A stretch of DNA of 64,000 nt from a candidate division FCPU426 bacterium (GTDB taxonomy: Bacteria; Oederibacteriota; Muellerivitia; Muellerivitales; Muellerivitaceae): positions 2,257 to 66,256 of the forward strand of contig JAHFCG010000001.1 in NCBI GenBank assembly GCA_023249615.1, given 5' to 3'. A program made the translations under genes and the position numbers. This document shows positions 40,105 through 61,587 of the stretch, one piece after another. How positions within the stretch are numbered: the first letter of the stretch is position 1; each line of letters opens with the position of its first letter. Below the pieces are notes generated by a model. The model ran no database searches, had not been told where the DNA came from, and saw only the letters and a list, made by a program, of their open reading frames with translations.

Positions 40105-40184
40105 CCGATCAAATCCGATACACGCCGATAAATCAAAATTATTTTTTACAGTTTGTAGTAATCGGCGTCCATCGGAAGTTATCG
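40105..40184. repeat. Palindromic element made of three 10-bp-phased CCGAT units, an AT-rich spacer, and three 10-bp-phased ATCGG units
   Basis: gCCGCCGATcaaaTCCGATacacGCCGATaaatc...gtaATCGGcgtccATCGGaagttATCGGCGGttg. Confidence 0.6.
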
Positions 40185-40207
40185 GCGGTTGCTTTTTTTC
40201 TTAACTT

Positions 40208-41105: not shown

Positions 41106-41117
41106 CTCTTGGGTCGC

Positions 41118-42234: not shown

Positions 42235-42301
42235 AGGATCTGCCTTTCGGGGTTCCGTGTTCGGGTCGAGACGATTGAAGACTGATCAACACTGGGGGGG
42301 T

Positions 42302-42664: not shown

Positions 42665-42758
42665 GACTTCCTCCCCAAACTAAATTTTGAATTTTTAATT
42701 CTTAATTTTTAACAGGCGACCCAATCAAGAATTTAAAATTAAACATTAACAATAGCTT

Positions 42759-43097: not shown

Positions 43098-43104
43098 GGA
43101 ATTC

Positions 43105-45940: not shown

Positions 45941-47121
45941 ACGACGGTGCTCCCCTTCATGATTTTAAGGTTGTTTTTCAAAATTTCATTGGTCGGGTCC
46001 AAGGCCAGGGACTTTTCCCAATGGTCAAGGGCCATTTGTTTTTCACCCTTTTTCATATATATATTTCCCAATTTTGAATGGGCGTCCGCGTGGGTCGGAT
46101 TAAGGCTTAACAGTTTTTCATATTCCACGATCGCCTCATCAAAGTGGCCCAATTTGTAGTTCAGGTTTCCCAAATTATCCAGGATCAGGACATCGTTTGG
46201 GTTGATTAATTTCGCTGCCTTATATTCCTCCAGGGCCTTTTGAATGTCCCCTTGTTTATCATAAATATAACCCAAAACGTTGTGAACGCTGGCGTCATTT
46301 GGGTTAATTTCCATCACTTTTCGGTACATCTTGATCGCGTCCTCATGAAGTCCGCGGCCCGCGTAAATCATCCCCAGCTTGAGATAAACCTCGGCGTTGT
46401 TGGGATTTTTTTCGCGGGCCTGCTTTAAAACCTCGATCGCCTTGTCATATTGCCCCAGTGACATAAAGGCGTGTCCCATTTTCAAATGGGCTTCCGGTTC
46501 ATGGGGGTTGAGTTTCAGCGCCTGCTGGTATTGAACCAGGGCTTCCGGGTACATCCCGCGTTTGGAATAGGCGTTCCCCAGAATGGCGTAAACGGCCGCA
46601 TGCCTCGGGTTGGCGATTAGGGCCTTTTCGTAGGCTGAGATGGCCTCGTCCAAATGACCGGATTGTTCGCAGGCATATCCCATCTTGAAATAGATTTCCG
46701 CGTTGCTCGGATTTATGGCGGTGTAATTCTTGTATTGTTCAACGGCCTCCTGGTAGGCCCCCATTTTCGCGTAAACATTCCCCAGGTTGTTAAAGAGGCC
46801 GGCGTCGCCCGGATTAAGTTCGATTGATTTTTTGAATTCCAAAACAGCATCGGGGTATTTCCCCTGAATCTCCAAAAGGAGCCCCAATTTACAATGCGCG
46901 TTAAGGTTCATGGGGTTTATTTCGAGGGACTTCCGGTAATAGGATTCCGCTTCGGGATAATTTCCCATATTGGTGCAAAGGGCTCCCAAATGAAACAATA
47001 TTTCTCCGTCATTGGGGGTTAATTCGAGGGCTTTTTTAAACTCAACCAGCGCGTCCTCATACCGCTTGGAAAGCGTAAAAGCCGTCCCGAGATTGATATG
47101 ATCCTGCGCCTTATCCATCAC
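45937..47121 (-). CDS. TPR-repeat protein (~394 aa)
   Basis: About 11 TPR units. Confidence 0.8.
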   Translation of the reverse strand: MMDKAQDHINLGTAFTLSKRYEDALVEFKKALELTPNDGEILFHLGALCTNMGNYPEAESYYRKSLEINPMNLNAHCKLGLLLEIQGKYPDAVLEFKKSIELNPGDAGLFNNLGNVYAKMGAYQEAVEQYKNYTAINPSNAEIYFKMGYACEQSGHLDEAISAYEKALIANPRHAAVYAILGNAYSKRGMYPEALVQYQQALKLNPHEPEAHLKMGHAFMSLGQYDKAIEVLKQAREKNPNNAEVYLKLGMIYAGRGLHEDAIKMYRKVMEINPNDASVHNVLGYIYDKQGDIQKALEEYKAAKLINPNDVLILDNLGNLNYKLGHFDEAIVEYEKLLSLNPTHADAHSKLGNIYMKKGEKQMALDHWEKSLALDPTNEILKNNLKIMKGSTVV

Positions 47122-47980
47122 TCACCTTTTCCTCTTTGTTTGTTTCCCAAAAATTTTCGGTTTTTTCCAAAAGTCTGTAAATTCTGTTCCGAACATCAAC
47201 ACATTCATAAAATTTTCTGGAAGGTCCCAATAATGTTTCCGTCAAACCCAAAATCAAAAACCCTCCCGCGGCCAAGGCGCCGGCGAAATTTTTATAGATT
47301 TTTTGCTGCAGGGGCGCCGTCAGATAGATCAAAAGGTTCCGGCAAAAAATCAACTGAAACCCGGACAACTCATCCACCCATTCCGACAACAAATCGTGGG
47401 CCCTGAAATGAACATGCTTTTTAAGATCCGCGACAACCCTGGCTCTGGAACCCTCCACGTAAAACCAGCGGGTGACCTGAGCCTTGGAAAGCTTTTTGAG
47501 CGCCTCGACCGGATATTCACCTTTTTCAGCCGTTCGAATGCTGGCCATGTCAATATCCGTGGCGAAAATCTCAAAATCAAATCCAGGCTGGGAAAAGGAG
47601 CACTCCTTCAAAATCATGGCTACGGAATAGGGTTCCTCCCCCGTACTGCACCCCGCGCACCAAATTTTCAGTTTAATCCCGGGATTCACGGGAAAACCCG
47701 GTAAAATATTTTGCTTAATCGCCTGGTAAACATTTGGGTCACGAAAAAATTCTGTGACGTGGATGGTCAGCCGATCCAATAGAAGCGCGGGTTCCTGCCT
47801 GTTATTTTGCAAAACCCGAAGATAATCAAGGTAAGTTTTTGTTTCCATGGCCCGCATCCGGACAGCGACACGGCGTTTGATGTAATTTGGCTTATACTGA
47901 TGGCCGTCAAAACCCTTTGTCTTCAAAAGAAGGGCCAGGATTTTTTGAAAATTCGGATCCTCTTCTTTCCCAGCGTTCAT
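47111..47980 (-). CDS. cheR: Chemotaxis methyltransferase CheR
   Basis: ...FFRDPNVYQ...IWCAGCSTGEEPYSVAMIL... SAM-binding core. Confidence 0.85.
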   Translation of the reverse strand: MNAGKEEDPNFQKILALLLKTKGFDGHQYKPNYIKRRVAVRMRAMETKTYLDYLRVLQNNRQEPALLLDRLTIHVTEFFRDPNVYQAIKQNILPGFPVNPGIKLKIWCAGCSTGEEPYSVAMILKECSFSQPGFDFEIFATDIDMASIRTAEKGEYPVEALKKLSKAQVTRWFYVEGSRARVVADLKKHVHFRAHDLLSEWVDELSGFQLIFCRNLLIYLTAPLQQKIYKNFAGALAAGGFLILGLTETLLGPSRKFYECVDVRNRIYRLLEKTENFWETNKEEKVSDG

Positions 47981-48010: not shown

Positions 48011-48985
48011 TCAAGGCTGGTAAATCGCCTCAAACCCTTTCTGAATTGGGAAATTATTGGTAATGATTTGGGCCAATGAATATTCCGGTCCTGTGTAAAA
48101 AACCTGGGCGATTCCCCTTTCCACAAGGATGGGAGGGTCCCAAAGTCCCGCCGGTTTAACTTCCCTCAGCTGGAATTTTTGTCCTTCCACCACACCTTTT
48201 TTGCTGCCGGCCGTGATAAAAATAAATTCAGGCTGGTTGAAATTATCCATATTGGGGTACCCCCCAGCCACGTAACATTTAACCGGGTGGTCCGGAAGGG
48301 TCTTTTTAACCTGCGCCTGTTTCCAGCGTTTTAATTCATCATCATAAAACCTTACCTGGTCACCCGCCTCAAAGGGGTAAAAGGTTTTTTTAACCTCCAC
48401 CTGACACCGCCGCTTTTCCACCGAAAGGACCTTCACGATTCCTAAATTCCTGACGTAGAGTCCCGAAAAACCCGATTGGGATTCCCTAACATTGTAAATG
48501 GTATTATAAACAATCAGCAGGTCCCCCGGCTTGACGCCATATTTGGTTGACGAAACCTCAATGTATGTTTTTTTCCCCGTGCTGTAAGAAACCTGGTTAT
48601 CAAAAGAACCAACAACATGGCCAACCGAGGAAACCTTTGATTCCTCCGGTACCAAAAAACCAGAACTGACAAAATAATAAAACCCGATTTTATCGTTGAT
48701 CCGGACCCTGGCCATTTTGGACCCGGGCTTGTCCTCCACGGGCTTATCCTGTTTCAGGGTAATTTCCGACTTGGGGGGTTCTTCCCGTGCTTTTGAATCT
48801 TCCCGCCTCGTATTTTCGGACCTGGGTGCTGGGACGGTGGGGGTCGGTGGGGCATCCATGTCAGCCTCATCCTCCTCAACCTCAATCGTCGCCGAAACCG
48901 CAAGGACCGGACGAAGAAAAGAAACAATGAGGACGGAAATCAAAATTAAGGAAAACGCCGAAACTTTCAATTTCTTAATGGGCAT
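48011..48985 (-). CDS. Hypothetical secreted/anchored protein with an acidic Pro-rich linker and a C-terminal beta-rich domain
   Basis: N-terminal TM/signal FSLILISVLIVSFLRPVLA; no recognisable family. Confidence 0.5.
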   Translation of the reverse strand: MPIKKLKVSAFSLILISVLIVSFLRPVLAVSATIEVEEDEADMDAPPTPTVPAPRSENTRREDSKAREEPPKSEITLKQDKPVEDKPGSKMARVRINDKIGFYYFVSSGFLVPEESKVSSVGHVVGSFDNQVSYSTGKKTYIEVSSTKYGVKPGDLLIVYNTIYNVRESQSGFSGLYVRNLGIVKVLSVEKRRCQVEVKKTFYPFEAGDQVRFYDDELKRWKQAQVKKTLPDHPVKCYVAGGYPNMDNFNQPEFIFITAGSKKGVVEGQKFQLREVKPAGLWDPPILVERGIAQVFYTGPEYSLAQIITNNFPIQKGFEAIYQP

Positions 48986-49382
48986 AATTTACCTCGTCAT
49001 AAAGTTTTTTTGCTTTGGAACGCCACTCCTCCTGAGAGGCGTATTGGGTCGTGATAATGTCAATGTAAGGCAGCGCCTGTTTCCGAAGCGCCACTATGTT
49101 TGAGGCGTTCGCCTTAATTTCAGCGCTATGGAAAAGGGCCTCGGCGCACAAATCCGATTTTTCGGGATAATCCGAGTATAATTTTCCATAAATTTCAACG
49201 GCGTGGTCCCCGTTCCCCATCAAATCGCACCAACGGCCGGCCCGAAAAAGAACCAACGGGGCGTCAGGATCCTTGGGGTTGGCTTTTACCCAGTCCACCG
49301 CCTGGTCGGCGAGTATCGAACTATTCAAAAGCAAAATAGTGACAACAATCAGGCCAATCGCTCCATAAATCAACTTTTTCAA
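48975..49382 (-). CDS. Small signal-peptide protein with TPR-like helical repeats (YbgF/BamD-like fold)
   Basis: Signal peptide MKKLIYGAIGLIVVTILLL; helical repeats. Confidence 0.5.
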   Translation of the reverse strand: MKKLIYGAIGLIVVTILLLNSSILADQAVDWVKANPKDPDAPLVLFRAGRWCDLMGNGDHAVEIYGKLYSDYPEKSDLCAEALFHSAEIKANASNIVALRKQALPYIDIITTQYASQEEWRSKAKKLYDEVNYAH

Positions 49383-49413: not shown

Positions 49414-51717
49414 TTAACTTATCTTTGAAAATATCCCCGTGAGGGTGTTCTTTTTAATTTTGGCTTCCTCTATTTTCTTTTGCGCGCGTTCATTCGCCGG
49501 ATCGATTTCCAGAATTTTGCTCCAGAGCCTGATGGCCTGGTCCATGTCATTTTGATCAAAGAATGTTTTTCCCTCGGCGTAATACTTTTCGGATTCCTGT
49601 TGAATGACAGCCTTCAGGGCCCCCAGTTGGCGGACGACTTCAGGATGCCCCGGTGAAAGCCGCAGCACCTTCGTGTATTCCTTTTGGGCGGTCGAGAGAT
49701 CGCCGGACTGGTGGGCGTTCCAACCCTCCTGAAAAATTTCATTAATCTGAAGTTCGTGCATTTGTGTTGTTTTCTGAAGATAGGCGTTCAGGTAGGCATT
49801 GCCATCCGCCTTCGATATGGCCTTTTTAAAAAACTCCATCGCGGTTTGAAAATCGCTTCGGACATAACTCCGGACCCCTTGTTCAAAAAGATTTAAAATG
49901 GGTTCCTTTTCCGGATTGGCTTCCAAACCCTCGACCCCGAAGGAAAGTAGCTTGGCGATGCCCTGTTGCAGGTAACGGGAAACATCCTCCAAGTCGGAAT
50001 TTAAATCATAAGCCTTGTTCCAGGCCACGAGGGCCCCCAATAAATCCCCAGCCTTGTACAACTCGATGGCGGACTGGTTCAAGGAATCGGCCCTGACTTT
50101 TGCCTGTTCTTTTTGGATCGCGGTTTTAAGATCCCTCTGTAAAACCCGGGCCTGTTCGTTTTGGGGATCAAGGGTAAGGGCCTGGTTGACCTGCGCGAGG
50201 GCGTTGGCAAGGTCCGACTGCTGCTGATAGGTTACGGCGTTTTGATAAAACTCCCGGGCCTTGGTCCGGTTATCCAGTTCTTCCTGAATCGCCTTGATGT
50301 AGGCTTTCGCCTGTTTGTTCTCGGGATCCGTTTCCAGTGTTTTTTGGAACTCTAGAATCGCGGCCTGGTGTTTTCCTTCCCGATACATTTGAAGGGCGGT
50401 TTTAATACCCGAGGAGGCATCCTTCTTCTTTTCCGTTTTATCGTCCATTTCCCGCAACCGGGCCATGAGGGTGTTAGCCTCTTTGTGATCCGGGATTTCC
50501 TGCAATACCCGTTTCAATTCACCCCGCGCGTCATCGAAGCGGTTTTTCGCGTAATATTCCTGCGCGCGTTTCATCCACCCCGAGACCCGGTCTTTTTGTT
50601 GCGCGTTTTCCATTTGGGAAATGAGGGATTGCGCCGAGGCCCGGGAGGTGGAAATTCCCTTGAGGCCAAGGTCAATTTCACTTGGCGAAGTCGCTTGTTC
50701 CATGGCGCTTTCCTTCGTGATAAAACCGCCCCGAACCAGTTGAATAAGGGATTGGTCGAAGGTTTGCATCCCGTATTGGCTTTGTCCTTCAGCGATAAAC
50801 CCCCGAATATGGCTAATTTTTCCCTCGGCGATAAGCGATTTGATGGTGGGGGTCGCGATCATGATTTCCGCCGCCGGAACCACCCCGACACCGTCAGCCT
50901 TGCTGACAAGGCGTTGGGAAATGACCGCCCGGATGGTGTTGGACAACTGGATCCGGATCTGGTTTTGTTGGGCCGGGGGGAAAAAATCAAGAATACGCTC
51001 CATGGTTTGAACGGTATCCATCGTATGGAGGGTTGATAAAACCAGATGCCCTGTTTCGGCCGCGGAGATGGCCGCGGAAACCGTTTCGACATCCCGCATT
51101 TCACCAATAAGAATAATGTCAGGATCCTGGCGAAGAACGTATTTAAGGGCGGACCTGAAACTTTCAGTATCAAGCCCCACCTCCCGCTGGGTAACACTGG
51201 ATTTTTTATCCTTGTGCACAAACTCAATGGGATCTTCAACGGTAACAATGTGAGCCGCCCGGTTGAGATTCATTTCATTGATCAGGGCGGCCAGGGTGGT
51301 GGATTTACCGGAGCCGGTGATTCCCGTGACCAGGATCAGACCCCGCTGTTCCATCGCGATTTGTTTCAAAACCGCGGTGGGCATGTTGATGTCCTCAATC
51401 CGGGGAATGTTTTGGGGAATCTGCCTCATGATGATTTCCGGCAATCCCCTTTGCCACATGGCGTTGGTCCGGAACCGGGCCAAACCCTCAACGGCGTAGG
51501 CCAGGTCAACCTCGCGGTGTTCCTCAAAAAAAATTCTTTGTTGTTTTTCGTCCATCAGGTAGGAAGCCACTTCGGCCAATTCCTGGGGAGAAAGGGGGGT
51601 TTCGCCTTGCGGGGTCAAATCACCGTCAATTCGAAACAGGGGGGGAGCGCCGGCCTTCATATGAACGTCGGAGGCCTTTTTTTCAACCATGGAACTGAGA
51701 ATTTGTTGAAGGTCCAT
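49414..51717 (-). CDS. pilT: PilT-family type IV pilus retraction-type ATPase fused to a ~420 aa C-terminal TPR region
   Basis: N-terminal MDLQQILSSMVEKKASDVHMKAGAPPLFRIDGDL (PilT N-terminus), Walker A LILVTGITGSGKSTTLAALI, followed by TPR repeats to the C-terminus. Confidence 0.75.
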   Translation of the reverse strand: MDLQQILSSMVEKKASDVHMKAGAPPLFRIDGDLTPQGETPLSPQELAEVASYLMDEKQQRIFFEEHREVDLAYAVEGLARFRTNAMWQRGLPEIIMRQIPQNIPRIEDINMPTAVLKQIAMEQRGLILVTGITGSGKSTTLAALINEMNLNRAAHIVTVEDPIEFVHKDKKSSVTQREVGLDTESFRSALKYVLRQDPDIILIGEMRDVETVSAAISAAETGHLVLSTLHTMDTVQTMERILDFFPPAQQNQIRIQLSNTIRAVISQRLVSKADGVGVVPAAEIMIATPTIKSLIAEGKISHIRGFIAEGQSQYGMQTFDQSLIQLVRGGFITKESAMEQATSPSEIDLGLKGISTSRASAQSLISQMENAQQKDRVSGWMKRAQEYYAKNRFDDARGELKRVLQEIPDHKEANTLMARLREMDDKTEKKKDASSGIKTALQMYREGKHQAAILEFQKTLETDPENKQAKAYIKAIQEELDNRTKAREFYQNAVTYQQQSDLANALAQVNQALTLDPQNEQARVLQRDLKTAIQKEQAKVRADSLNQSAIELYKAGDLLGALVAWNKAYDLNSDLEDVSRYLQQGIAKLLSFGVEGLEANPEKEPILNLFEQGVRSYVRSDFQTAMEFFKKAISKADGNAYLNAYLQKTTQMHELQINEIFQEGWNAHQSGDLSTAQKEYTKVLRLSPGHPEVVRQLGALKAVIQQESEKYYAEGKTFFDQNDMDQAIRLWSKILEIDPANERAQKKIEEAKIKKNTLTGIFSKIS

Positions 51718-51803
51718 CCAGGCTCCTAAAAATGACCCAAGGTGTGGAAATCGGTGTTTATTATAGCAATTCCCCGGCTGGAAAAACTCTCTATTTTAAG
51801 GTT

Positions 51804-53993
51804 TTACGGGGCCTCCGGAAGCATCCCTGTTGAGGTTTTAAAGGCCGCCGCCGCCAAAAAGAAGAGGCCGTTCTTTTTAAAATTCTCACCTAAAACCTCA
51901 TATTCGGTTTTGGTTCTATGAATTCCGGGGATCTTCTTTCCGGAAGCCAGGATTAGTTCTATCCCCTTGATCCTTTCCTCCAGACCTTTGGAATTCCCGG
52001 ACGAACGTTCGGTTTTCCTAAGGATATCGGCGGCTTGAATCAGGTTCCCTTCCATTTCAAAAGCCTTTGCCGTGTTGATGGCACCCGGTAAATAAGAAGG
52101 ATCGATTTGAAACGCGAGCCCGCATAAAAAACGCGCGAGCTCCGGATAACCCCTTTTCCCCATGAGAACCGCCAAATCGTTCAAAGCGCCGGCCTCTTTT
52201 TTAAAAGTCAAACCTCTTTCAAAAAGAAGAAGGGCCTGTTCCTCGCGGCCCCGGCCCAGCAATTCCCTTGCCGGCAAGAAATATTGGTCGCCGTAATATT
52301 GGAAAATTTCTCCCGAGGAAAAATCCAGTCCGGGGAAAAAGTGGAATTCCTCAAGCCCCCTCAGGCGTTGCCCCTTTACCGACTCAAGGGTTCTTTGAAG
52401 GAGGGTTTCGGGTTTTTCCGGCCGCGGATTCCATTTCAAAACCAGTCCATTGGGGTCCCAATTCCCCGGAAAGGAATGAAGGACAGGCCAAAGTTTCTGG
52501 GTTTGAAGGGAATAAAAAAATCCACCCGAAGATCCCGCCCCAGCGATTCCTTCCAGACGGTCCCCGAAAGCATGGGTTTCCTTTAAAACCCTTTCAATGA
52601 AAAGGTTTTGCCTGCCCCATTGTGTCCATCCCCAATCATGAAGTAAAAAAACGGAGGGCTCAAAGGCAATATCCCTCCTGATTTCCTGTGCTTCCCGTTG
52701 ATAAAAAATCGGAAAAACATAATGATCCCCCTCCGCCAGAAAAATCGAGCCACGGGGGATGTTTCTCAGGCTGTTTTTTCCAAAATCCTCCGCGAGGAAA
52801 TAGCGGCTTTTGTTTTCCCACCCGTCGACTTTTAACAACCAAAAAAGCGAGCCAAGGAAAAATATCGGGATGATCCAACCCTGGGTGGGTTTATGGGTCC
52901 TCAGGTGATTGGCGCCGTAAAAAACAAAAATCAAAACCAGCCCCGAGGTGGAAACAAAATAAACATTAACCAAATAGAGGCGGTTTTGCTCATAGAGGGC
53001 GAAAAGGAGTATGGACAAAAAAACAGGGGCGAACAGTAGAAGGAGGGAAACGGCAAGCTCCCTTCGTTTTTTCCACATAAAATAGAAACCGGCGCACGCC
53101 ACAAGGAATAAACCCGGAAGCCAATTGAAAATAAAAATCCACGCGACTTCCAACAGGCGGGCCCCCGACAACGGTCCACCCCCGGTTCCAAATTCCCCGC
53201 CGGCGGCGAGTCTTCGCGAAACGACCCAGAGAAACCCCTTCCAGTGAACGGGGTTTCCCCAGCAAATTCCGGGATGCAGCGCCGCCCGCATCGGAAGATA
53301 AAGGTAAATGGAAAACCCAGTTAAGGTTATAGACGCCGTCAAAAATAAATTTTTCAGGCTCCAATTTTCCCGAAAATGAAAACCCCAGACGAGGAGAAAA
53401 GGAAGCCATAAAATTTGGGTTTGCCAGTGGTTTCCCATCCCGACCGCCCATAAATAAAAGGCGGTAATGACAAGAAACTTTTCATCCGAATTGTTTTCGC
53501 CCTGAATTTTTAAGGCCGCCAAAAGGACGCAAAACAGGAGGGTCAAGGTGTAAACCGCCCCTTTCGCGGTTAAACTTTGCGCGAAAAGACTCCTGTAGGA
53601 AATAAAAACTATTCCCAGAACCATTAACAATATTTCCTGACCAAGGCCTCGAAAGGCAACCGTTACACGCCGGCAGGATTGAAAAATAATCCCAAGGGAG
53701 GCCAGGGCAAGGGTTTGGGAAAAAAGATTCAGGCGGAAGGCGGGTGTGCCCACGGGAATCCAGGTAAAGCAATGAGCCGCAAGGTTAAAAAGAGGATAAC
53801 CGGGAGGATGAGGAAGGCCCAAACCAAAGGCGGCGGCGGTCATTTCCCCGCTGTCATCGGACATCAGCCCTGGGTTTTGCGCCCTTAAAAGTATTTGCCA
53901 GAGGATAAGAAAATAGGACAGCCAAACCCACCAGGGCAGGGGCGTATTGAATCCGCCGGTTTCTAATTTTACCGATCTTGCGGTTTTTCCCAA
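51804..53993 (-). CDS. DUF2723 / GT-C-fold (O-mannosyltransferase-like) polytopic membrane protein with a C-terminal TPR region
   Basis: N-terminal DSGEMTAAAFGLGLPHPPGYPLF motif, about 11 TM segments, and a C-terminal soluble TPR-like region. Confidence 0.6.
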   Translation of the reverse strand: MGKTARSVKLETGGFNTPLPWWVWLSYFLILWQILLRAQNPGLMSDDSGEMTAAAFGLGLPHPPGYPLFNLAAHCFTWIPVGTPAFRLNLFSQTLALASLGIIFQSCRRVTVAFRGLGQEILLMVLGIVFISYRSLFAQSLTAKGAVYTLTLLFCVLLAALKIQGENNSDEKFLVITAFYLWAVGMGNHWQTQILWLPFLLVWGFHFRENWSLKNLFLTASITLTGFSIYLYLPMRAALHPGICWGNPVHWKGFLWVVSRRLAAGGEFGTGGGPLSGARLLEVAWIFIFNWLPGLFLVACAGFYFMWKKRRELAVSLLLLFAPVFLSILLFALYEQNRLYLVNVYFVSTSGLVLIFVFYGANHLRTHKPTQGWIIPIFFLGSLFWLLKVDGWENKSRYFLAEDFGKNSLRNIPRGSIFLAEGDHYVFPIFYQREAQEIRRDIAFEPSVFLLHDWGWTQWGRQNLFIERVLKETHAFGDRLEGIAGAGSSGGFFYSLQTQKLWPVLHSFPGNWDPNGLVLKWNPRPEKPETLLQRTLESVKGQRLRGLEEFHFFPGLDFSSGEIFQYYGDQYFLPARELLGRGREEQALLLFERGLTFKKEAGALNDLAVLMGKRGYPELARFLCGLAFQIDPSYLPGAINTAKAFEMEGNLIQAADILRKTERSSGNSKGLEERIKGIELILASGKKIPGIHRTKTEYEVLGENFKKNGLFFLAAAAFKTSTGMLPEAP

Positions 53994-54023
53994 ATAAACC
54001 CACCCTTCACGCTTCGCTTCCCT

Positions 54024-56471
54024 TTATTTGTTCAGGAGCTTCCATAATTCAACCTGGGCTTCCTTGTTTTCGGGGTTAATTCCAAGTACCGCCCGATAGG
54101 CTTCCTCGGCCTTGATCCGGCTCCCCATCCGCGCCATCAAACGTCCCATGGTCAACTGGGCCTCAATCTGTTTCGGATTTAACCGGACGGAGGATTCAAG
54201 AAGCGCTTTTGCTTCCTGGGCCCGTCCCTCGCGGTTGAAAATGATGGAAAGCTGGTATTGGGCATCGGCTAATTCCGTGTTCAGGCGGATCATTTCATCA
54301 AGCAATGTTACGCTTTTGACCTCGTTTTTTTCTTTTTGCGCTTCCTCAAGTTCCCCGATCAACTGGTTCAAACGGGCGGGTTTTGTTCTTATCGTTTTTT
54401 CAAACTCAAGCTGGGCCGCCTCTAGGATATTCTGTTGTGAATACATTTTCGAAAGAAGCGCTTGGGGTTCGGTGTAACCAGGATCTAGCTTTAAGGCCCG
54501 ATCCAGGGCGTGAATGGATGCAAGATAAAGACCCTTCTCCATGAGATTCTTTCCCAGTTCATTAAAACCGGAAATATAACGGTAAAAATATTCCTTTGTC
54601 GGGCCATTCGTTTTCTCTTCCGGCCTTGGAAGCGCCGATAAATCCAGTCGGTATTGGATGTTTTCCAACGAGGCCCCCGTTGGCCCGCTCCCGCCGAATA
54701 CCCTCGTCAAAACCGCGGGATAACCGGAATCCTCCTTCCATTCGGGGAGGGGGGTTGAAAGGGACCGGTGTATTTCCCAATAATTCCTGTTATTCAAAAG
54801 TAAATTTTTGAACAAATCCTCCTCGGACCCCAGAAGGGAGGAAAACAACAACTCCGGCTCCCTTTGAATCAACTGGTTGAGGTACCACCTTTGGGCCAGG
54901 TATCTTTTTTCAAGAATGACCGCCGAAAGGGAAACCGGCTCAATCAGGCGGGCCTCCCGGCAGGCGTACGCCTCAAATTCATCATCACAAACCAAAACTT
55001 TTTTTGGATTCGGTGTTTCAGCGGGGAATCCCGGGGTCGCGGGGGACGGTTCATCCGTATTGACCTTGTTGGAGCTTGAAAGTATTTGAAGGAGGTTCAG
55101 GGCGTGTTGTTGGGGGAAAAATATTCCGCTTCGATAAAAATGCTGGCCCGGCAGCAGCGACAGCCACGAACCGACGAAAAGAAATAATCCCGCGGTGATC
55201 AAAAGCCGGGAACCGGAAAAATAACCCGTTTGCCTTCTTTCCATGCCCTTTTCGAGAAGTTTAAGGAACATTTCCCCCAGCCCCAGCGGGATCAAAAGAG
55301 CCGTCGTTCCCAGGGCTTCGGAGGAAAAAGAAAAAAACAAAATCCCACCCATGAAAGCGAGAACCCATAACCAAAGGTCCAGGGTTGGATAAAGGGATTT
55401 GTTGCCGGTTTTCCACTTGAAAAAATAAAGGCTTGCAAGCAAAAAAACAACGCCGAAGAGAAAAACCGTCCCCCAACCCCAGGCCTCCAGGGCCGACAGC
55501 AGGGACCATTTCCGGTCGGAATAAAACAAAAACAGGGATTTCCAGTTGATAACCATCTCCCAAAAAGGCCGAGGCCCTCCCCAGGAGGGAAAACTTTTTT
55601 CAGTCCTGAAAATAACCCAGGCAAAGGGAGTCAGACCCAAAAAAAAAGGAAATAAATAATCCCTCCAGCTCCATCTCCTGAAATCAAGTGAACCTAAAAG
55701 TTTGATGGAGCCCAAAAAACCCCAAAGGGGGTGGATGGCCCAAAGAAGGCCCAGGTTCAATCCGAGGGCCCTGCCCGGTTTTTCCTCAAGATCCAGTAAA
55801 TATTTCTGGAAAAGAAAAAGAAGGAGGCCGAGGGATCCGATTAAACCCATCGCGGTTGTGGCTGTGTTCCAAAAAGGGAGGGTTAGCGCCGAAAACCAGG
55901 AAACCGCCGGCACCAGGAACAAATTGGAAAGGGTTTTGTTTTTTATGCCGTGGGTGAAACCCATTACGAAAAAAAACAGGGCAAGGGCCAAAACGAAACC
56001 GGAAAGTTCCGGTAGAAGTGTAAATTGTCTTTGGGGAAGCAGAAAACAGGCGGCCTGGGCCAAAAGGTAGCTCAACGGCGACCAGGGGGGCTCCGCCACG
56101 GCACCCGCGTGGATGGAAAGCCAGAAGGCGGGATCTTTGCCCCAAAAAAAACCGGGCAGCCGGTTTGCTTCAAAAAGGATCCACGGAACTCCGGCCCCGG
56201 CCAGACCCAAAAAAAAGGCTAAAAATGAGAATTGAAAAAAACGGAACAAATCCCAGCAAAAACCGAAAATCAAAAGCGATGTGATTACCATCAGGGATCC
56301 CTTTCCCATTTGTCCCTGGTAAAACAAAAACCATCCCCATGGCAATAATCCCGACGCGGTCGTCAACAGGAATTTTTGAAGTCTGGACCTTACAACGTCC
56401 CGGATTCTCGCGTTTTCCTCAGCGGCGATTTCCTCGATATTACGCACGGTTTTTTTCCCGAAGGATGGCAA
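54024..56471 (-). CDS. Second DUF2723-like polytopic membrane protein with C-terminal TPR (paralog)
   Basis: Same architecture, with ...EANRLPGFFWGKDP...AEPPWSPL at the equivalent position, and C-terminal TPR. Confidence 0.5.
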   Translation of the reverse strand: MPSFGKKTVRNIEEIAAEENARIRDVVRSRLQKFLLTTASGLLPWGWFLFYQGQMGKGSLMVITSLLIFGFCWDLFRFFQFSFLAFFLGLAGAGVPWILFEANRLPGFFWGKDPAFWLSIHAGAVAEPPWSPLSYLLAQAACFLLPQRQFTLLPELSGFVLALALFFFVMGFTHGIKNKTLSNLFLVPAVSWFSALTLPFWNTATTAMGLIGSLGLLLFLFQKYLLDLEEKPGRALGLNLGLLWAIHPLWGFLGSIKLLGSLDFRRWSWRDYLFPFFLGLTPFAWVIFRTEKSFPSWGGPRPFWEMVINWKSLFLFYSDRKWSLLSALEAWGWGTVFLFGVVFLLASLYFFKWKTGNKSLYPTLDLWLWVLAFMGGILFFSFSSEALGTTALLIPLGLGEMFLKLLEKGMERRQTGYFSGSRLLITAGLFLFVGSWLSLLPGQHFYRSGIFFPQQHALNLLQILSSSNKVNTDEPSPATPGFPAETPNPKKVLVCDDEFEAYACREARLIEPVSLSAVILEKRYLAQRWYLNQLIQREPELLFSSLLGSEEDLFKNLLLNNRNYWEIHRSLSTPLPEWKEDSGYPAVLTRVFGGSGPTGASLENIQYRLDLSALPRPEEKTNGPTKEYFYRYISGFNELGKNLMEKGLYLASIHALDRALKLDPGYTEPQALLSKMYSQQNILEAAQLEFEKTIRTKPARLNQLIGELEEAQKEKNEVKSVTLLDEMIRLNTELADAQYQLSIIFNREGRAQEAKALLESSVRLNPKQIEAQLTMGRLMARMGSRIKAEEAYRAVLGINPENKEAQVELWKLLNK

Positions 56472-57189
56472 GGCCGGTCAAAGTCAAATTCGGATCCACC
56501 CTTTTGAATAACCCGGTCTTTCTGAAAACCTCCGACCAACCGCCGGTGGCGATGGCGGGAGCCCGGGTCCCCAACTCCTTCCGGATTCCGGCCAGAAGTT
56601 CCCGGGTAGTTCCCACGGCCCCGTGGTAAACCCCGGAACGAACCGCCTCTTCCGTGGTTCGTCCGATCGAGTTTTTAACCGGCTCAAATTTCACCCGGGG
56701 TATTTTGGCTGTAAATTCATGGAGGGCCTGAAGGGAAATTCCCAAGCCGGGCAAAATGGCCCCCCCGCAATAGGCTCCCTGACGGTTTACCACGTCGAAC
56801 GTGGTGCCTGTTCCGTAATCCACCACGATCACCGGGGCTCCATAAAGCTCCTTGGCGGCCACCGCGTTCGCCAAGCGGTCAGCGCCCACTTGGCCGGGTT
56901 TTTTCACCCGGACGGCTATTCCCAGTTTTTTTCCGATTTTCACGAATTCAGGGGTTAAGTTAAAAGCGTCCATGAGGCCGCGGCGCAAAAGCGGGTCCAC
57001 GGCGGGAACCACACTAGCGACCATCAGCCCCTCAGCCTCGGAGGTTTTCCAAATGCGCGTTGCCCAGACCCTCGCGTTCCGGAGGTTTCGAAGGGAATCC
57101 GTGGGAACAACCATTCTCCGAATAACCTTCCGCCCCTCCATAAGCGCGGAAACGGTTCTTGTGTTGCCAACCAGAACGGCCCAAATCAT
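56440..57189 (-). CDS. coaX: Type III pantothenate kinase
   Basis: MIWAVLVGNTRT...VDYGTGTTFDVV, Bvg accessory factor family. Confidence 0.85.
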   Translation of the reverse strand: MIWAVLVGNTRTVSALMEGRKVIRRMVVPTDSLRNLRNARVWATRIWKTSEAEGLMVASVVPAVDPLLRRGLMDAFNLTPEFVKIGKKLGIAVRVKKPGQVGADRLANAVAAKELYGAPVIVVDYGTGTTFDVVNRQGAYCGGAILPGLGISLQALHEFTAKIPRVKFEPVKNSIGRTTEEAVRSGVYHGAVGTTRELLAGIRKELGTRAPAIATGGWSEVFRKTGLFKRVDPNLTLTGLAILREKNRA

Positions 57190-58031
57190 GAACGCCTCTT
57201 TCTCTTCCTCAACCGGAGAATCTCAACATCCCCTGAGGTGATTCTCTCAACCACCCCGACATCCGTGCGGATTAGAAGGGCACCTTTCTCATCCAAATCC
57301 ACCGCCTGACCGTAAAAATCCCTGTGGGCCTGGGAAACCCTCACCTGACTGCCAAGGGTGACATTCCTTTTTTTCCATTCTCCCAGCACCTTGGGGAACT
57401 TTCTTTCGGTTACCTTCCGGTAGGTATCTTCCAAATTCAAAAGAAGCCTCTGAAAAAAGACGGCCCGATTAATTTTTTTCCTGGAGAAGATCCGGAGGCT
57501 TGTGGCGTTTTCCCTCAGATCTTTTGGAAAATCCCCCGGCACCTGGTTTAGGTTGATCCCAATCCCAAGAATCACCGGGGATATTTTATCTTTTTTAGCG
57601 CCCAATTCCGTCAAAATGCCGCAAACTTTCTTCCCCTCCAAAAGCAAATCATTGGGCCATTTGATTTTGGGGTGAATCCGGTAGGCTTCCAGGGTCCACG
57701 CGACAGCCACCGCGGCCGCCAGGGTTATCTCGGAAATTTCATCGAGGGGAAGTTTGGGCTTTAGAATTATTGAAAAGGCGAGGGATTTTCCCTGTTTCAC
57801 CACCCATCGTCTTCCCTGCCGGCCCCGGCCATTGGTTTGAACCTCGGCCGTTACCACGGCCCCCTCGGGTGCCCCTTCCTGGGCCAAAAGAAGAGCCGTA
57901 TCGTTTGTGGAAGATACACTTTCCAGGCAAAGAGTGGGACGACCGAAGGTTTTTGTTCCAAGACCCCGGAGGATAATTTCCTGGGAAAAGGGCTCCGTGT
58001 TTTTGGGGGGGCGCGGGGTTGAATTCTTCAA
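57186..58031 (-). CDS. birA: Biotin--[acetyl-CoA-carboxylase] ligase BirA (catalytic domain)
   Basis: ...GRGRQGRRW...; birA-coaX adjacency. Confidence 0.8.
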   Translation of the reverse strand: MKNSTPRPPKNTEPFSQEIILRGLGTKTFGRPTLCLESVSSTNDTALLLAQEGAPEGAVVTAEVQTNGRGRQGRRWVVKQGKSLAFSIILKPKLPLDEISEITLAAAVAVAWTLEAYRIHPKIKWPNDLLLEGKKVCGILTELGAKKDKISPVILGIGINLNQVPGDFPKDLRENATSLRIFSRKKINRAVFFQRLLLNLEDTYRKVTERKFPKVLGEWKKRNVTLGSQVRVSQAHRDFYGQAVDLDEKGALLIRTDVGVVERITSGDVEILRLRKRKRRS

Positions 58032-58873
58032 CTTGGAAATAACTCCACAGAAAAATCAACCGAGGGGGCGGAATGGGTGAGCGCCCCCGAGGAAAACCGG
58101 TCAACGGGAATTCGGGAATACTTTTTTATGTTTTTTAAAGTCAGTCCTCCGGAAATTTCAACCTGCATTTTTCTCCGGACAAGTTTCAGGATTTTATCAA
58201 AGATTTGAGGAGGCGCGTTATCGACCAAAATAATATCGGCGCCGGCCCGCAGGGCTTCAGACGCCTGGTTGAAGTTTTCCACCTCCACCTCAATGAACTC
58301 ATCACGGCCGTATTTTCGGCGGGCCGCCTGAACGCAGGGGTAAACCCCCCCGCCCAATTTCAAATGGTTATCTTTGATGAGGACATGCCCCGAGAGATTG
58401 AATCGGTGGTTCATTCCTCCTCCCACCCGAACGGCGTACCTTTCAAGTGATCGTAAAAGAGGGGTGGTTTTTCGGGTGTCGTAAAGGCGGGAACCCTTGA
58501 TCCTTCCGGCAAATCGCCGGGTGAGTGTCGCGATTCCCGAGAGATGGCTCAGGAGATTCAATGCCACTCTTTCCCCAGAAAGAAGGGCTTGGGCCGGCCC
58601 CTCCAAGCCCGCGACCTTCATTCCGCTCCGTACCCTGGAACCCTCCTTTTTCAAAACCCGAAACCTGCATTTTTTGTCCAGTATTTTAAAAACCTCCGCC
58701 GCCAAGGGCAAACCCGCGAGAATCCCATCCGATTTAGCCAGAATCGCGCCTTTTGCCATTTGGCCGGAGGGTATGACCCCCCGGGTGGTCCTGTCATTCC
58801 AGGCCCCATCCTCCTTCAACGCCTGGCGAAGAAAAGGGCGAAGAGCACGGTTATCAAGTTTTTGCACTTTCAT
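58028..58873 (-). CDS. nadC: Nicotinate-nucleotide pyrophosphorylase (quinolinate phosphoribosyltransferase)
   Basis: Type II PRTase fold motifs; ~281 aa. Confidence 0.85.
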   Translation of the reverse strand: MKVQKLDNRALRPFLRQALKEDGAWNDRTTRGVIPSGQMAKGAILAKSDGILAGLPLAAEVFKILDKKCRFRVLKKEGSRVRSGMKVAGLEGPAQALLSGERVALNLLSHLSGIATLTRRFAGRIKGSRLYDTRKTTPLLRSLERYAVRVGGGMNHRFNLSGHVLIKDNHLKLGGGVYPCVQAARRKYGRDEFIEVEVENFNQASEALRAGADIILVDNAPPQIFDKILKLVRRKMQVEISGGLTLKNIKKYSRIPVDRFSSGALTHSAPSVDFSVELFPS

Positions 58874-58903
58874 TAAATCTCCAGAACTAAAAAGCTAAAA
58901 GAT

Positions 58904-59018
58904 GTCATTGCGAGGAGACCGTAATACGGTCGAGGAAGCAATCAGAAGCTAACAAAAAAATTCAGTTTTTTGTTGCATTGGATTGCCACGTCGGTCCGCA
59001 GGACCTCCTCGCAATGAC
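58904..59018. repeat. Structured intergenic element with a 14-bp outer inverted repeat (GTCATTGCGAGGAG / CTCCTCGCAATGAC) enclosing three small hairpins
   Basis: Hairpins gaccgtaatacggtc, caaaaaaattcagttttttg and ggtccgcaggacc. Confidence 0.5.
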
Positions 59019-59037
59019 AACAACCTTTTGTCTCACC

Positions 59038-61587
59038 CTATTCCGTAGGTGGCATCTGTTCGAAAATTTTATACATTTCTTCGTTACTTTTTAATTTTGC
59101 CCGCTCTTCCAAGATTTTATTTTTTTCAACTTCAACCATTGTTGCGGGCGCCTTCTTCAAAAATTCTTGGTTTGAAAGTCTCCCCTTCTTCGACTCGATT
59201 GATTTTTCCAATCTTTCCATTTCTTTTTTCAGTCTATTCATTTCAACGTTCTTGTTAATAAAACCCTCAACATGAAAACACAATTCACCGCCGCCAATCG
59301 GGACAGCGACCGCCAATGGAGAACGACCGATCAAATGTTCAAAATCCCGTTCATTAATGCGGGCTAAAAGTTTTAGGATTTTTACGTTTTCCTTCAACTG
59401 AAGGAATACACTTCTTTCCCCAACAAAAGTGATTTTTATCTCGGCACCAGGCAGAACACTCAGTTCACCGCGAATAACGCGAATTGCAGTTATAGCCTCT
59501 TTTAGCAACTCAAAGTCCTTGACGGCTTTTTCATCCGCCGGATAATCCCCCGGCAGGGGCCAAGAGGATTTCATGATGCTTTCCGAACGCCCCGGCAGTT
59601 TGAACCACAATTCCTCGGTCACGAACGGAATCACGGGATGAAGAAGACGCAAAACTCCCTCCAGAACCGCGATAACAACGGACGCGGCAAGTTTCTTTTC
59701 CGGAGAGTCGGGCTCCAGATAAAGCCTGGGCTTCAACGCCTCCAGGTACCAGTCGCAAACTTCGTTCCACAAAAAGCGGTAGAGGGTTTGGGAAAACTCG
59801 GCCACCCGGTATTTTTCGTAGTCGGAAGTAACCTCCGCGGTGACTTGGGAAAGGCGGGTCAGGATCCACCTGTCCTCAAGCTTCAAATTCTCCCAGTCTG
59901 GTTTTTCCAAGGGTTTCACTTCAGTACCATCCGCCAACCCCATCAAAACAAACCTTGTCGCGTTATAAAGTTTATTGACGAAATTCCGGCAGGATTCCAG
60001 CTTTTGGGGCGTCAAAGCGACATAACGCTGTTTGGTCTCGATGGAGGTCAGGGTAAACCGTAGGGCATCGGTTCCGTACTTATCGATCAAATCCAGTGGA
60101 TCGACCACATTCCCTTTCGACTTGCTCATCTTCTTGCCTTCGGCGTCCGCCACCAGGGAATACATGTAAACTTCCCGAAAAGGAACGTCGCCCATGAATT
60201 TCATTCCCATCATCATCATTCGCGCGACCCAGAAAAATATTATGTCCCAGCTCGTCACCAAAACAGTGGTGGGATAAAAAAGTTGGAGGTCATTTGTTTT
60301 TTCAGGCCAACCCAGCGTGGAAAAAGGCCACAACCCGGAAGAAAACCAGGTGTCCAGAACATCCGGATCCTGTTCAAACTTGGCTCCCTTGCACTTGGAA
60401 CATGTTTTCGGCTGGGTTTCAGACGCGGTCTGAATTCCACAATCCTGGCAGGTATAAACGGGGATTCGGTGCCCCCACCAAAGCTGGCGGCTGATGCACC
60501 AATCGTGGATGTTCGTCAGCCATTTTTCAAATTCACCCCGCCAGGCCTCCGGGACGAATTTGGTTTTTCCCTCGGCCACGGCCTTCAGCGCCAAATCCGC
60601 CAAAGGTTTCATTTTCACGAACCATTGCTTGGAATAGTAGGGCTCCACCACCGTCCCGCAGCGGGAACAATGACCGACATTGTGTTCATGCGGCTCCACC
60701 TTGATAAGGGTTCCCAGCGCCTCCAGATCCGCCACGATTTTTTTGCGGGCGTCCAACACCCGCATCCCTTTGTAGATGCCGGCGTTTTCGTTCAGGGTCC
60801 CGTCGGGGTTCAGGATGTTGACCCGGGGGAGCTGATGCCGGTTCCCCATGGCGAAGTCGTTGAAATCATGGGCGGGAGTGATCTTGACGACGCCGGTTCC
60901 GAATTCCTTGTCCACCGAATCGTCCTGGATAATGGGAATCCGCCGGTTGACCAGGGGAAGGTTCACCGATTTTCCCACCAATCCGGCGTAGCGGTAATCT
61001 TCCGGGTGAACGGCGACCGCGGTATCGCCCAAAAGCGTCTCGGGTCTTGTGGTGGCCACTTCCAGACCGTCGGCGGTGTCATGAACAAAGGAATAGCGGA
61101 GATGGTAAAAATTTCCTTGGATGGTTTTGTGTTCCACCTCGATATCCGAAAGCGCCGTTTGGCACCTGGGGCACCAGCTGATGAGGTAGTAATCCTGGTA
61201 AATCAATTTTTCGTTGAAAAGATCGATAAAAACTTTTTGAACCGCGCGGGACAATCCATCGTCCATCGTGAAACGCTCGCGGGTCCAGTCGCAGGAAGCC
61301 CCCAGTTTTCGCAGTTGGCCCATGATGGTAGCGCCGTACTTCTCCTTCCATTCCCAGGTCCGTTTAATAAACGCCTCCCGGCCCAGATCATGACGGGACT
61401 TCCCTTCTTTTTTAAGCTCCCTCTCAACAACGTTTTGGGTGGCGATTCCCGCGTGGTCGCAGCCCGGAAGCCAAAGTACATTGAACCCATTCATGCGCTT
61501 GTACCGGGCGATCAGGTCCTGAAGCGTGACATTGAGGGCGTGGCCGATATGGAGGCTTCCCGTGACATTGGGAGGAGGAATCACCAT
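59038..61587 (-). CDS. valS: Valine--tRNA ligase, main frame. The N-terminal ~33 codons appear to lie in another frame (see findings), with the probable real start at about 61688.
   Basis: MVIPPPNVTGSLHIGHALN (HIGH region)...KMSKSKGNV, anticodon-binding domain and C-terminal coiled coil. Confidence 0.9.
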   Translation of the reverse strand: MVIPPPNVTGSLHIGHALNVTLQDLIARYKRMNGFNVLWLPGCDHAGIATQNVVERELKKEGKSRHDLGREAFIKRTWEWKEKYGATIMGQLRKLGASCDWTRERFTMDDGLSRAVQKVFIDLFNEKLIYQDYYLISWCPRCQTALSDIEVEHKTIQGNFYHLRYSFVHDTADGLEVATTRPETLLGDTAVAVHPEDYRYAGLVGKSVNLPLVNRRIPIIQDDSVDKEFGTGVVKITPAHDFNDFAMGNRHQLPRVNILNPDGTLNENAGIYKGMRVLDARKKIVADLEALGTLIKVEPHEHNVGHCSRCGTVVEPYYSKQWFVKMKPLADLALKAVAEGKTKFVPEAWRGEFEKWLTNIHDWCISRQLWWGHRIPVYTCQDCGIQTASETQPKTCSKCKGAKFEQDPDVLDTWFSSGLWPFSTLGWPEKTNDLQLFYPTTVLVTSWDIIFFWVARMMMMGMKFMGDVPFREVYMYSLVADAEGKKMSKSKGNVVDPLDLIDKYGTDALRFTLTSIETKQRYVALTPQKLESCRNFVNKLYNATRFVLMGLADGTEVKPLEKPDWENLKLEDRWILTRLSQVTAEVTSDYEKYRVAEFSQTLYRFLWNEVCDWYLEALKPRLYLEPDSPEKKLAASVVIAVLEGVLRLLHPVIPFVTEELWFKLPGRSESIMKSSWPLPGDYPADEKAVKDFELLKEAITAIRVIRGELSVLPGAEIKITFVGERSVFLQLKENVKILKLLARINERDFEHLIGRSPLAVAVPIGGGELCFHVEGFINKNVEMNRLKKEMERLEKSIESKKGRLSNQEFLKKAPATMVEVEKNKILEERAKLKSNEEMYKIFEQMPPTE

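Follow-up and report, generated by a model that had tools for sequence, protein, structure and literature searches.

A TMEM260-like DUF2723 protein and its diverged paralog with a rewritten sugar-recognition loop are encoded side by side in a candidate division FCPU426 bacterium

Two adjacent genes of an uncultured soil or peat bacterium of candidate division FCPU426 encode large polytopic membrane proteins, and the question that they raise is whether the products are protein O-glycosyltransferases and, if so, what they modify. The genes lie in a 64,000-nucleotide stretch of contig JAHFCG010000001.1 (assembly GCA_023249615.1, positions 2,257 to 66,256), which we call the window and whose first letter is position 1 of all coordinates below. 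An initial annotation, made from the letters alone, had described the products as paralogs of 729 and 815 amino acids and as candidate protein O-glycosyltransferases. We found both open reading frames (ORFs) as described, and our analysis makes it somewhat probable that the locus encodes a periplasmic protein O-glycosyltransferase (protein 1) together with a neo-functionalised or accessory paralog (protein 2). Protein 1 adds a member to the known family PF11028 (DUF2723). Protein 2, which the family model does not recognise and which has lost two of the four conserved functional residues, is best described as a new, lineage-restricted TMEM260-like variant. The reading frames are as follows.

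54024-56471, minus strand: ORF of protein 2, 815 amino acids, TTG start
54024-56447, minus strand: protein 2 as most likely translated, 807 amino acids (the ORF extends to TTG 56471); diverged TMEM260-like paralog
51804-53993, minus strand: ORF of protein 1, 729 amino acids, TTG start

The start assigned to protein 1 (TTG 53993) is the first in-frame start codon past the stop of protein 2 and lies behind a purine-rich stretch. A database gene call (P0001, 686 amino acids; region 53862-53993, minus strand) begins at M44 and so appears truncated, dropping transmembrane helix 1. Because homologs also have this helix, we preferred the long ORF of 729 amino acids. Protein 1 matched PF11028 over residues 47-208 with an E value of 2.7e-19 and 70.1 bits (gathering cutoff, 24.2), and a phmmer search aligned its residues 40-456 with the solved human TMEM260 chain 9rql_A (PDB 9RQL; E 1.1e-14). 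When the profile of the protein 1 family, for which 149 homologs were found, was compared with the same chain, the E value was 1.3e-56. The initial annotation had recognised a DUF2723/TMEM260 signature in a motif of the form DSGE...LPHPPGYPLF and had named a profile search as the test that could refute it. The motif, DDSGEMTAAAFGLGLPHPPGYPLF, is present at residues 46-69, and the search did find DUF2723 similarity for protein 1, so this claim stands. The suggested check against the GT39/PMT families was negative, with no match for either protein at E<=1. By sequence, protein 1 is clearly a TMEM260-like/DUF2723 protein of the GT-C class.

An AlphaFold model of protein 1 (predicted local distance difference test, pLDDT, 90.7; predicted template modelling score, pTM, 0.90) showed about 11 helices in the membrane, then a Rossmann-like alpha/beta domain of five strands (residues 417-522) and ten hairpin helices (residues 558-723). 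Membrane helices were counted from the secondary structure of the model, since a Kyte-Doolittle count gave too few. The tail formed by the hairpin helices gave no match to any Pfam TPR model at E<=1, and it is absent in 38 of 99 close homologs, which end just before it and retain DDSGE and HPPGYP. The earlier picture of about 11 transmembrane helices followed by TPR tails in both proteins therefore holds in part: the helix count is right for protein 1, protein 2 has about 13, and Pfam TPRs are found only in protein 2. The GT-C transmembrane module is present in both.

We then compared protein 1 with the functional residues of human TMEM260. According to the structural report (bioRxiv 10.64898/2026.03.17.711096), D52 and H67 of the human protein belong to the sugar-recognition motif, R264 and Y267 to the donor-loading loop, where R264 contacts the phosphate, R355 lies in helix 10, and D441 in the Rossmann-like domain is the proposed catalytic base; mutating H67 or R264 abolishes activity, and mutations in the Asn ladder of the TPR domain reduce it to about 10%. 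A HMMER alignment placed human D52, H67, R264 and D441 on D47, H62, R260 and D423 of protein 1. Across 34 members of the protein 1 family, D47 and H62 are conserved in 34/34, D423 in 33/34 and R260 in 32/34, and protein 1 thus keeps four of the six residues mutated in human TMEM260. Together with its neighbour, D47 forms an acidic pair (D46-D47) in the first extracytoplasmic loop, at the position of a DxD/DDx/DEx-type motif. These elements map as listed.

53787-53873, minus strand: sugar-recognition motif PGLMSDDSGEMTAAAFGLGLPHPPGYPLF in the first periplasmic loop of protein 1 (from the alignment to 9rql_A; the coordinates translate to the peptide)
53190-53261, minus strand: donor-loading-loop region WGNPVHWKGFLWVVSRRLAAGGEF of protein 1, with R260
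52671-52745, minus strand: opening strand of the Rossmann-like domain of protein 1 and the loop behind it, IFLAEGDHYVFPIFY...RRD, with D423 (strand 417-420, then helix)
51825-52322, minus strand: TPR-like helical tail of protein 1, residues 558-723 (AlphaFold, and hhalign to the TPRs of protein 2)

The conservation of this set in protein 1 indicates that the D52/H67/R264/D441 catalytic residues and the three-domain "hand" architecture are older than eukaryotes.

Protein 2 was harder to place. All 28 of its aligned homologs begin MRNIEE, which corresponds to GTG 56447, eight codons into the ORF, and for this reason the product is most likely 807 amino acids long and not 815 as first stated. A public call for the same gene (P0121; region 56309-56471, minus strand) begins at M55 and also appears truncated, losing the MRNIEE peptide and one helix. 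Searches with protein 2 gave no match to PF11028 at E<=1; Pfam and NCBIfam showed TPRs only, the Pfam matches being TPR_2, TPR_19, TPR_14 and TPR_8 (E about 1e-8) within residues 636-806. Its deep relatives (P0161, P0162 and P0204) are likewise without a PF11028 match. No PDB sequence was matched by protein 2 or by the TPR-free profile of its family, for the profile even at E<=10, and a BLASTP comparison of protein 1 with protein 2 was not significant (E 0.37).

We do not count the BLASTP result as evidence against homology, because profile methods agreed with one another. An hhalign comparison of the two family alignments gave a probability of 99.8% (E 2.3e-27) in local mode and 99.96% (E 1.1e-38) in global mode. 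At 13% identity the alignment spans about 625 columns and takes in all three parts (membrane, Rossmann-like and TPR), and the tail of protein 1 pairs with the TPRs of protein 2. The motifs PG, D, PPxxP, H, R, WGxP, N, D and W are collinear in the two families. An exhaustive HMMER search of 1.84 billion representatives was made with a TPR-free profile built from the first ~570-600 residues of the protein 2 family. It returned the protein 2 family first, after which the score dropped from 303 to 66 bits; the proteins below the drop aligned nearly end to end (E 2.7e-13 to 1e-8), and all seven that were checked carry PF11028 (E 1e-25 to 1e-37). As judged from these profiles, protein 2 is a true remote paralog of protein 1 with a GT-C fold, so that the paralogy proposed earlier is upheld at the profile level only. 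The N-terminal 600 residues of some 35 representatives labelled "TPR repeat protein" or "hypothetical" can now be assigned to the GT-C/TMEM260 clan.

The AlphaFold model of protein 2, of good confidence, has about 13 membrane helices, two of which (residues 12-51 and 55-72) are extra and precede the counterpart of helix 1, followed by a five-strand Rossmann-like domain (490-592) and TPR helices (623-814). The TPR tail is present in all aligned family members, and in its C-terminal peptide N802, K803, A805, Q806, W810, L812 and N814 are invariant. At the other end of the protein, the N-terminal peptide is also conserved across 29 sequences, with I12 and E19 invariant and E13 and A16 at 90% or above. 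A Pro/Thr-rich insertion of 25 residues, SSSNKVNTDEPSPATPGFPAETPNP, is unique to the protein 2 of the window and absent in 28/28 aligned homologs; the model has a pLDDT below 50 at residues 468-485. The parts of protein 2 are as follows.

56409-56447, minus strand: N-terminal peptide (M)RNIEEIAAEE, predicted to be cytoplasmic
56064-56156, minus strand: first periplasmic loop PGFFWGKDPAFWLSIHAGAVAEPPWSPLSYL, counterpart of DDSGE...HPPGYP (hhalign residue mapping)
55005-55079, minus strand: the Pro/Thr-rich insertion, which separates the last membrane helix from the Rossmann-like domain
54969-55004, minus strand: opening strand of the Rossmann-like domain and the loop behind it, KKVLVCDDEFEA; the model has this strand at 490-495
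54027-54605, minus strand: TPR domain, residues 623-815 (Pfam and model), with the C-terminal near-invariant DPxNKEAQVELWKLLNK

How far does protein 2 keep the active site? The hhalign mapping showed that its first periplasmic loop has been rewritten to the motif (L)P-S-F-x-W-G-x-D-P-x-F-W...G-A-V-x-E-P-x-W-S-P-L. The column of D47 (human D52) holds a variable K112 in protein 2, and an invariant Asp, D113 (29/29), stands one position later. The column of H62 (human H67) holds E127 in 26/29 sequences, and Ser or Pro in the three deep relatives. At the column of R260 (human R264) the phosphate-binding Arg is lost, and the position, S312 in protein 2, is variable (S6, T5, G4, D3 and others). The R439/D441 pair of the protein 1 family is also absent, and the equivalent of human Y267 is conserved in neither family. 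Other positions were kept, invariant or nearly so: P106, G111, P128 and P132 of the loop, H247 (H189 in protein 1), R289 (R236), W297-G298 (W245-G246), N459 (N407) and W529 (W454). In the Rossmann-like domain D497 is found in 27/29 sequences and position 500 is Glu or Asp in 29/29; D497 is the likely counterpart, by alignment, of the catalytic-base Asp.

Within the new loop P106, F108, G111, D113, P114, W117, G123, P128, W130 and P132 are invariant in 29/29 sequences, and nowhere else in the family, whose 29 sequences are 34-58% identical, is conservation as high as in this loop. A loop that stays invariant within a fast-diverging family is constrained, not decaying, and its conservation argues for a retained binding site in protein 2, as a prediction. 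Because PF11028 failed and the equivalents of H67 and R264 are missing, it is unjustified to call protein 2 a second O-mannosyltransferase. The earlier proposal that both proteins are candidate protein O-glycosyltransferases is reasonable for protein 1, with its equivalents of D52, H67, R264 and D441, and finds only partial support for protein 2. Protein 2 can be regarded as a natural experiment, in which a common scaffold carries a rewritten yet strongly constrained sugar-recognition loop kept phylum-wide; depending on how it is read, it represents a new donor or acceptor specificity in the GT-C fold or a bacterial GT-C pseudo-enzyme.

The genes around the pair, in transcription order, are listed here.

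59038-61587, minus strand: valS, first in transcription order
58028-58873, minus strand: nadC, after valS
57186-58031, minus strand: birA, after nadC
56440-57189, minus strand: coaX, after birA and directly before the protein 2 gene
49414-51717, minus strand: PilT-TPR, 767 amino acids, a PilT-type ATPase fused to TPR repeats, after the protein 1 gene
48975-49382 (orf135) and 48011-48985 (orf324), minus strand: two genes for small exported or membrane-anchored proteins, after PilT-TPR
36039-47980, minus strand: chemotaxis (che) block encoding CheR, a TPR protein, CheW, a TPR protein, CheC, CheB, CheA, CheC/X and a GGDEF protein
beyond the chemotaxis block in transcription order: dprA and topA

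The protein 2 family is small. About 35 representatives, fragments included, were found among the 1.84 billion at E<1e-10, and 22 loci in 185,579 species genomes. Fourteen of the 22 loci have an informative taxon label, which is FCPU426 in every case, and the others are labelled uncultured bacterium or (pro)teobacterium; the family was found only in FCPU426 and deep relatives. Across loci (numbered here with the prefix L) the order is valS-nadC-birA-coaX-protein 2-protein 1-PilT/TPR-orf135-orf324-CheR-TPR-CheW, and about 20 FCPU426 genomes are collinear over the ~15 kb from valS to cheA. When compared with the window proteins, PilT-TPR is 73-92% identical, valS 59-84%, protein 2 34-57% and protein 1 35-48%. 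The genes of proteins 1 and 2 are adjacent in most loci; inserted sequence parts them in L011 and L024. In L014, L032 and L033 protein 2 stands before PilT-TPR with no adjacent protein 1. Two of these, L032 and L033, are deep relatives, in which the identity of protein 2 to the window copy falls to 27-30% (valS of L033, 57%). At every locus protein 2 lies directly 5' of PilT-TPR or has only protein 1 in between, with an additional insertion of a few kilobases in two loci. The constant gene at the site is protein 2, not protein 1.

FCPU426-type assemblies also contain further PF11028/PMT_2 paralogs in other contexts (L025, L027, L028 and L029). At L025:5865-14932 a PF11028 paralog lies beside two PMT_2-like GT-C genes and bacA, which encodes undecaprenyl-diphosphatase; in L027 and L028 (around 8001-15700) PF11028 paralogs lie beside NHL-repeat proteins, and another PF11028 paralog is found at L029:5921-8134. 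These genes indicate an expansion of GT-C/TPR proteins in the FCPU426-type lineage.

The spacing of the genes was examined for the extent of the transcription unit. The start of protein 2 (GTG 56447) overlaps the coaX stop by 8 nucleotides (GTGCGTAA, 56440-56447), and start/stop overlaps of the protein 2 gene with coaX also occur in loci L001, L002, L026, L032 and L033. A gap of 30 nucleotides separates the stop of protein 2 from the start of protein 1, and one of 86 nucleotides separates protein 1 from the PilT-TPR gene. Within the second gap, TATAAT is found 5' of the PilT-TPR ATG in 21/21 FCPU426 loci, about 50 nucleotides away in 19 of them and 81 and 108 nucleotides away in the other two; the extended form TGnTATAAT is present in 19/21 loci, and the surrounding spacer has diverged. 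In the window this element is:

51760-51768, minus strand: extended -10 promoter-like box TGCTATAAT (consensus match and conservation; not a mapped promoter)

The box was spotted by eye, and its conservation was checked afterwards across the 21 loci. A consensus promoter and terminator scan of 51500-59200 scored sites no more often than in shuffled sequence, and it passed over TGCTATAAT on account of a weak -35 element. The transcription unit to which the GT-C pair belongs likely ends, on its downstream side, at this box. Given the coaX overlap and the 30-nucleotide gap on one side and a box of its own before PilT-TPR on the other, the unit is probably birA-coaX-protein 2-protein 1, as far as can be judged from gene spacing, and separate from the downstream PilT-TPR/che module.

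Two further observations concern these spacers. Proteins 2 and 1 are in the same frame, with a TAA stop and ten sense codons between them (53994-54026, minus strand); the shared frame may be chance (one in three) and would permit a read-through fusion. Upstream of the TGnTATAAT box, a conserved AAAATA..GGGTTTTTCC element stands in an otherwise variable spacer (L001-L024).

PilT-TPR consists of an ATPase domain (PilT/T2SSE, residues 3-274) and a long TPR region, and it is better conserved than valS in FCPU426 (66-92% against 57-84%). Homologs of the same length that are 42-43% identical occur in another lineage (L030:10001-12301 and L031:8713-11013), where prfA-prmC lie 5', two small genes follow, then CheR-TPR-CheW or dprA-topA, and no GT-C gene is present. 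Because the module occurs there without a GT-C neighbour, the ATPase module and the GT-C genes are separable. L002, L016 and L017 have no che block, and in L002 (= L016) dprA-topA follow the orf324 homolog. A comparison of the window with L002, L016, L017 and L031 shows that the block, from CheR to CheC/X and the GGDEF protein, is either there in full or missing altogether from its place between the orf324 homolog and dprA-topA, which suggests that it was gained by insertion or lost as a cassette. We rejected the che genes as part of the GT-C unit, since the block is absent from these three loci and accompanies PilT-TPR where the GT-C gene is missing. PilT-TPR and the che genes look like a conserved ATPase/chemosensory module of unassigned role.

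Possible acceptors in the window were also considered. Ser/Thr/Pro-rich linkers are a type of region often modified by O-glycosyltransferases, and the product of 48011-48985 (minus strand) has one. This secreted protein, without a Pfam match, starts with a signal peptide; it has a conserved acidic motif, TxEVE, and a conserved C-terminal domain (RVRIxDxxGFYYF...), its Ser/Thr/Pro/Ala-rich linker is hypervariable, and its total length varies from 292 to 442 amino acids across genomes. The notion that it is an O-glycosylation client is speculative: its gene accompanies the ATPase module, and nothing specific connects its product to the GT-C genes. The gene at 48975-49382 (minus strand) encodes a protein of 135 residues that matches no Pfam model and has a membrane anchor or signal sequence at its N-terminus, and in FCPU426 it always comes next after PilT-TPR (27-71% identity). 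The initial annotation had also pointed to an Fn3 protein and a giant outer membrane protein at 1-7879 as possible targets. We could not support this, as the region is 44 kb distant, has no Pfam match and shows nothing that connects it to the pair; the 1998-residue ORF at 1883-7879 (minus strand) had no Pfam match at E<=0.001.

The mechanism that we propose places two homologous GT-C proteins of the TMEM260 type in the inner membrane, with their Rossmann-like and TPR domains presumably in the periplasm. The organism is a diderm, with an outer membrane and a periplasm, because lpxA/C/D/I and lptF/G are present within the 64-kb window. By its homology to TMEM260, protein 1 would most likely be the active enzyme. 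Through D47, H62 and R260 the membrane bundle would take up a sugar linked to polyprenyl phosphate, a donor class that we infer; an extended polypeptide would rest on the TPR and Rossmann-like lobe, if the acceptor is indeed a protein; and D423 would deprotonate a Ser/Thr hydroxyl for an inverting transfer, as proposed for human TMEM260. The lipid carrier is presumably undecaprenyl phosphate, as we assume dolichol to be impossible in a bacterial inner membrane. Protein 2 would be an old, fast-evolving paralog that works with another lipid-linked donor or another acceptor, or else serves as a non-catalytic substrate-binding partner, because its loop is rewritten and its phosphate-binding Arg is gone. 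We consider these two readings of protein 2, active enzyme and non-catalytic partner, about equally likely.

Several points weigh against this proposal. Instead of a protein, a glycan or a lipid could be the acceptor. Equivalents of Y267 and R355 are not conserved among the 34 members of the protein 1 family, which has invariant residues of its own (R236, R439 and D441; R439 and D441 in 34/34), and for these reasons the donor and the chemistry may differ from those of O-mannosylation. In protein 2 the register at the presumed catalytic base is uncertain by one, since D423 pairs with D497 in the local hhalign and with position 498 in the global one. No gene for a polyprenyl-phosphate sugar synthase (GT2) or a flippase was found among the window ORFs scanned. 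In the literature that we searched there was no characterised bacterial PF11028 member, and DUF2723 was named only in the human TMEM260 study. Finally, the three loci in which protein 2 has no adjacent protein 1 argue against an obligate heterodimer.

This last point led us to downgrade the obligate heterodimer as the leading explanation. In a heteromeric enzyme, protein 1 would be the sole catalytic subunit, and protein 2 a pseudo-glycosyltransferase that binds a lipid or peptide ligand and supplies the TPR arm that recruits the acceptor. The losses in protein 2 fit such a role: it has no equivalents of H67 and R264, no R439/D441 pair and no PF11028 match. So does the fact that about 40% of protein 1 homologs are tail-less, and that those in the loci examined adjoin a protein 2 with a TPR tail; a tail-less protein 1 plausibly needs help, because the human TPR Asn-ladder mutants are only about 10% active. 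We nevertheless judge a heteromer less likely than not, since protein 2 persists beside coaX and PilT-TPR in the three loci without an adjoining protein 1, and since its invariant loop-1 Asp and conserved Rossmann-loop Asp would be needless in a pure scaffold. The available part of the TMEM260 cryo-electron microscopy report (bioRxiv 10.64898/2026.03.17.711096) also describes no dimer. The same loci speak for two independent enzymes, in which protein 2 would be an active GT-C enzyme whose loop, GxDPxFW...EPxWSP, suits another polyprenyl donor and another acceptor, the adjacency being a historical result of tandem duplication or insertion. Protein 2 has the complete three-domain architecture in a model of good confidence; D113, R289, H247, N459 and D497 are invariant or nearly so and collinear with conserved positions of the active family; and the extra DUF2723/PMT_2 paralogs (L025, L027, L028 and L029) fit a family that diversifies by specificity. 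Against this, the phosphate-contacting Arg and the motif His are lost, either mutation of which abolishes the activity of human TMEM260, the loop-1 Asp is off by one position, and the motif has no precedent in characterised enzymes. We therefore hold independent enzymes to be possible, at rather less than even chances.

A different possibility, raised by the initial annotation from the gene neighbourhood, is that the pair glycosylates a motility or surface substrate together with PilT-TPR and the che genes, as the pilin-modifying TfpW might suggest by analogy. Protein 2 is near PilT-TPR in every locus found, including the deep relatives; TfpW, a GT-C protein of 11 helices whose TPR domain lies in the periplasm, sets a precedent by acting on a type IV pilin; and two positions past PilT-TPR lies the gene (48011-48985) of the secreted protein with the hypervariable Ser/Thr/Pro-rich linker. 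However, the collinearity is not specific, as valS-nadC-birA-coaX are conserved at the same loci, and because these upstream genes are equally syntenic the adjacency carries little information. PilT-TPR has its own conserved promoter-like box, the 42-43% identical PilT-TPR with CheR-TPR-CheW occurs after prmC where the GT-C gene is absent, three loci lack the che block, and no pilin gene was found among the Pfam-scanned ORFs beside the pair. We thus find the proposed link to motility improbable. Still less probable, in our view decidedly so, is a narrower version in which protein 2 would be the founder of a new GT-C subfamily and a constant partner of PilT-TPR, its near-invariant, acidic N-terminal MRNIEEIAAEE docking onto the TPR domain of the ATPase. 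The very highly conserved PilT-TPR does accompany protein 2 down to 27% identity, which general collinearity explains as well. If docking did occur, an ATP-driven cytoplasmic motor would be coupled to a periplasmic glycosyltransferase-like module, with the 48011-48985 protein as a possible client.

How the periplasmic glycosyltransferase and paralog that we favour relate to known systems can be seen from four comparisons. TMEM260 was reportedly recognised as a protein O-mannosyltransferase in 2023. Its structure was reported in 2026, and bacterial homologs are mentioned in that report (bioRxiv 10.64898/2026.03.17.711096; PDB 9RQL/9RQM/9RQN). Human TMEM260 and protein 1 share the order of an 11-helix GT-C bundle, a Rossmann-like domain and a TPR domain, and protein 2 resembles the human protein in domain order, GT-C fold and profile-level homology. 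Unlike human TMEM260, the bacterial pair would sit in the inner membrane and face the periplasm, and protein 2 differs further in its lost H67 and R264 equivalents, its shifted loop-1 Asp, its two added N-terminal helices and its failure against PF11028. The acceptor sequon of human TMEM260 lies in IPT domains, whereas none of the window proteins scanned showed an IPT/TIG domain.

The PMT/POMT (GT39) enzymes and TMTC1-4 are also comparable, and the TMTCs too have C-terminal TPRs. PMTs function as obligate dimers, as stated in one account (PMC12705809), which offers a precedent for paired paralogs. Unlike them, the window proteins gave no match to PF02366 (PMT), MIR or PF13231 (PMT_2) at E<=1; the luminal module of PMTs is MIR, whereas the window proteins have Rossmann-like and TPR domains, and the likeness to PMTs is at the level of the fold only.

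By architecture, the closest bacterial analogue is Pseudomonas aeruginosa TfpW, the pilin D-arabinofuranosyl transferase. It has 11 helices and a TPR domain in the periplasm, one of its periplasmic loops carries a DDx motif, and its acceptor is a protein, pilin. The tfpW gene directly follows pilA, whereas the window pair has no pilin among its scanned neighbours and the ATPase module is independent of it. For a protein 2 without catalysis, the precedent is PIGU/GAB1, a non-catalytic subunit of glycosylphosphatidylinositol transamidase with a GT-C fold, to which protein 2 is likened by fold and not by sequence. PIGU has neither a Rossmann-like nor a TPR lobe, and protein 2 differs from PIGU/GAB1 in that it has kept acidic residues at both candidate catalytic positions.

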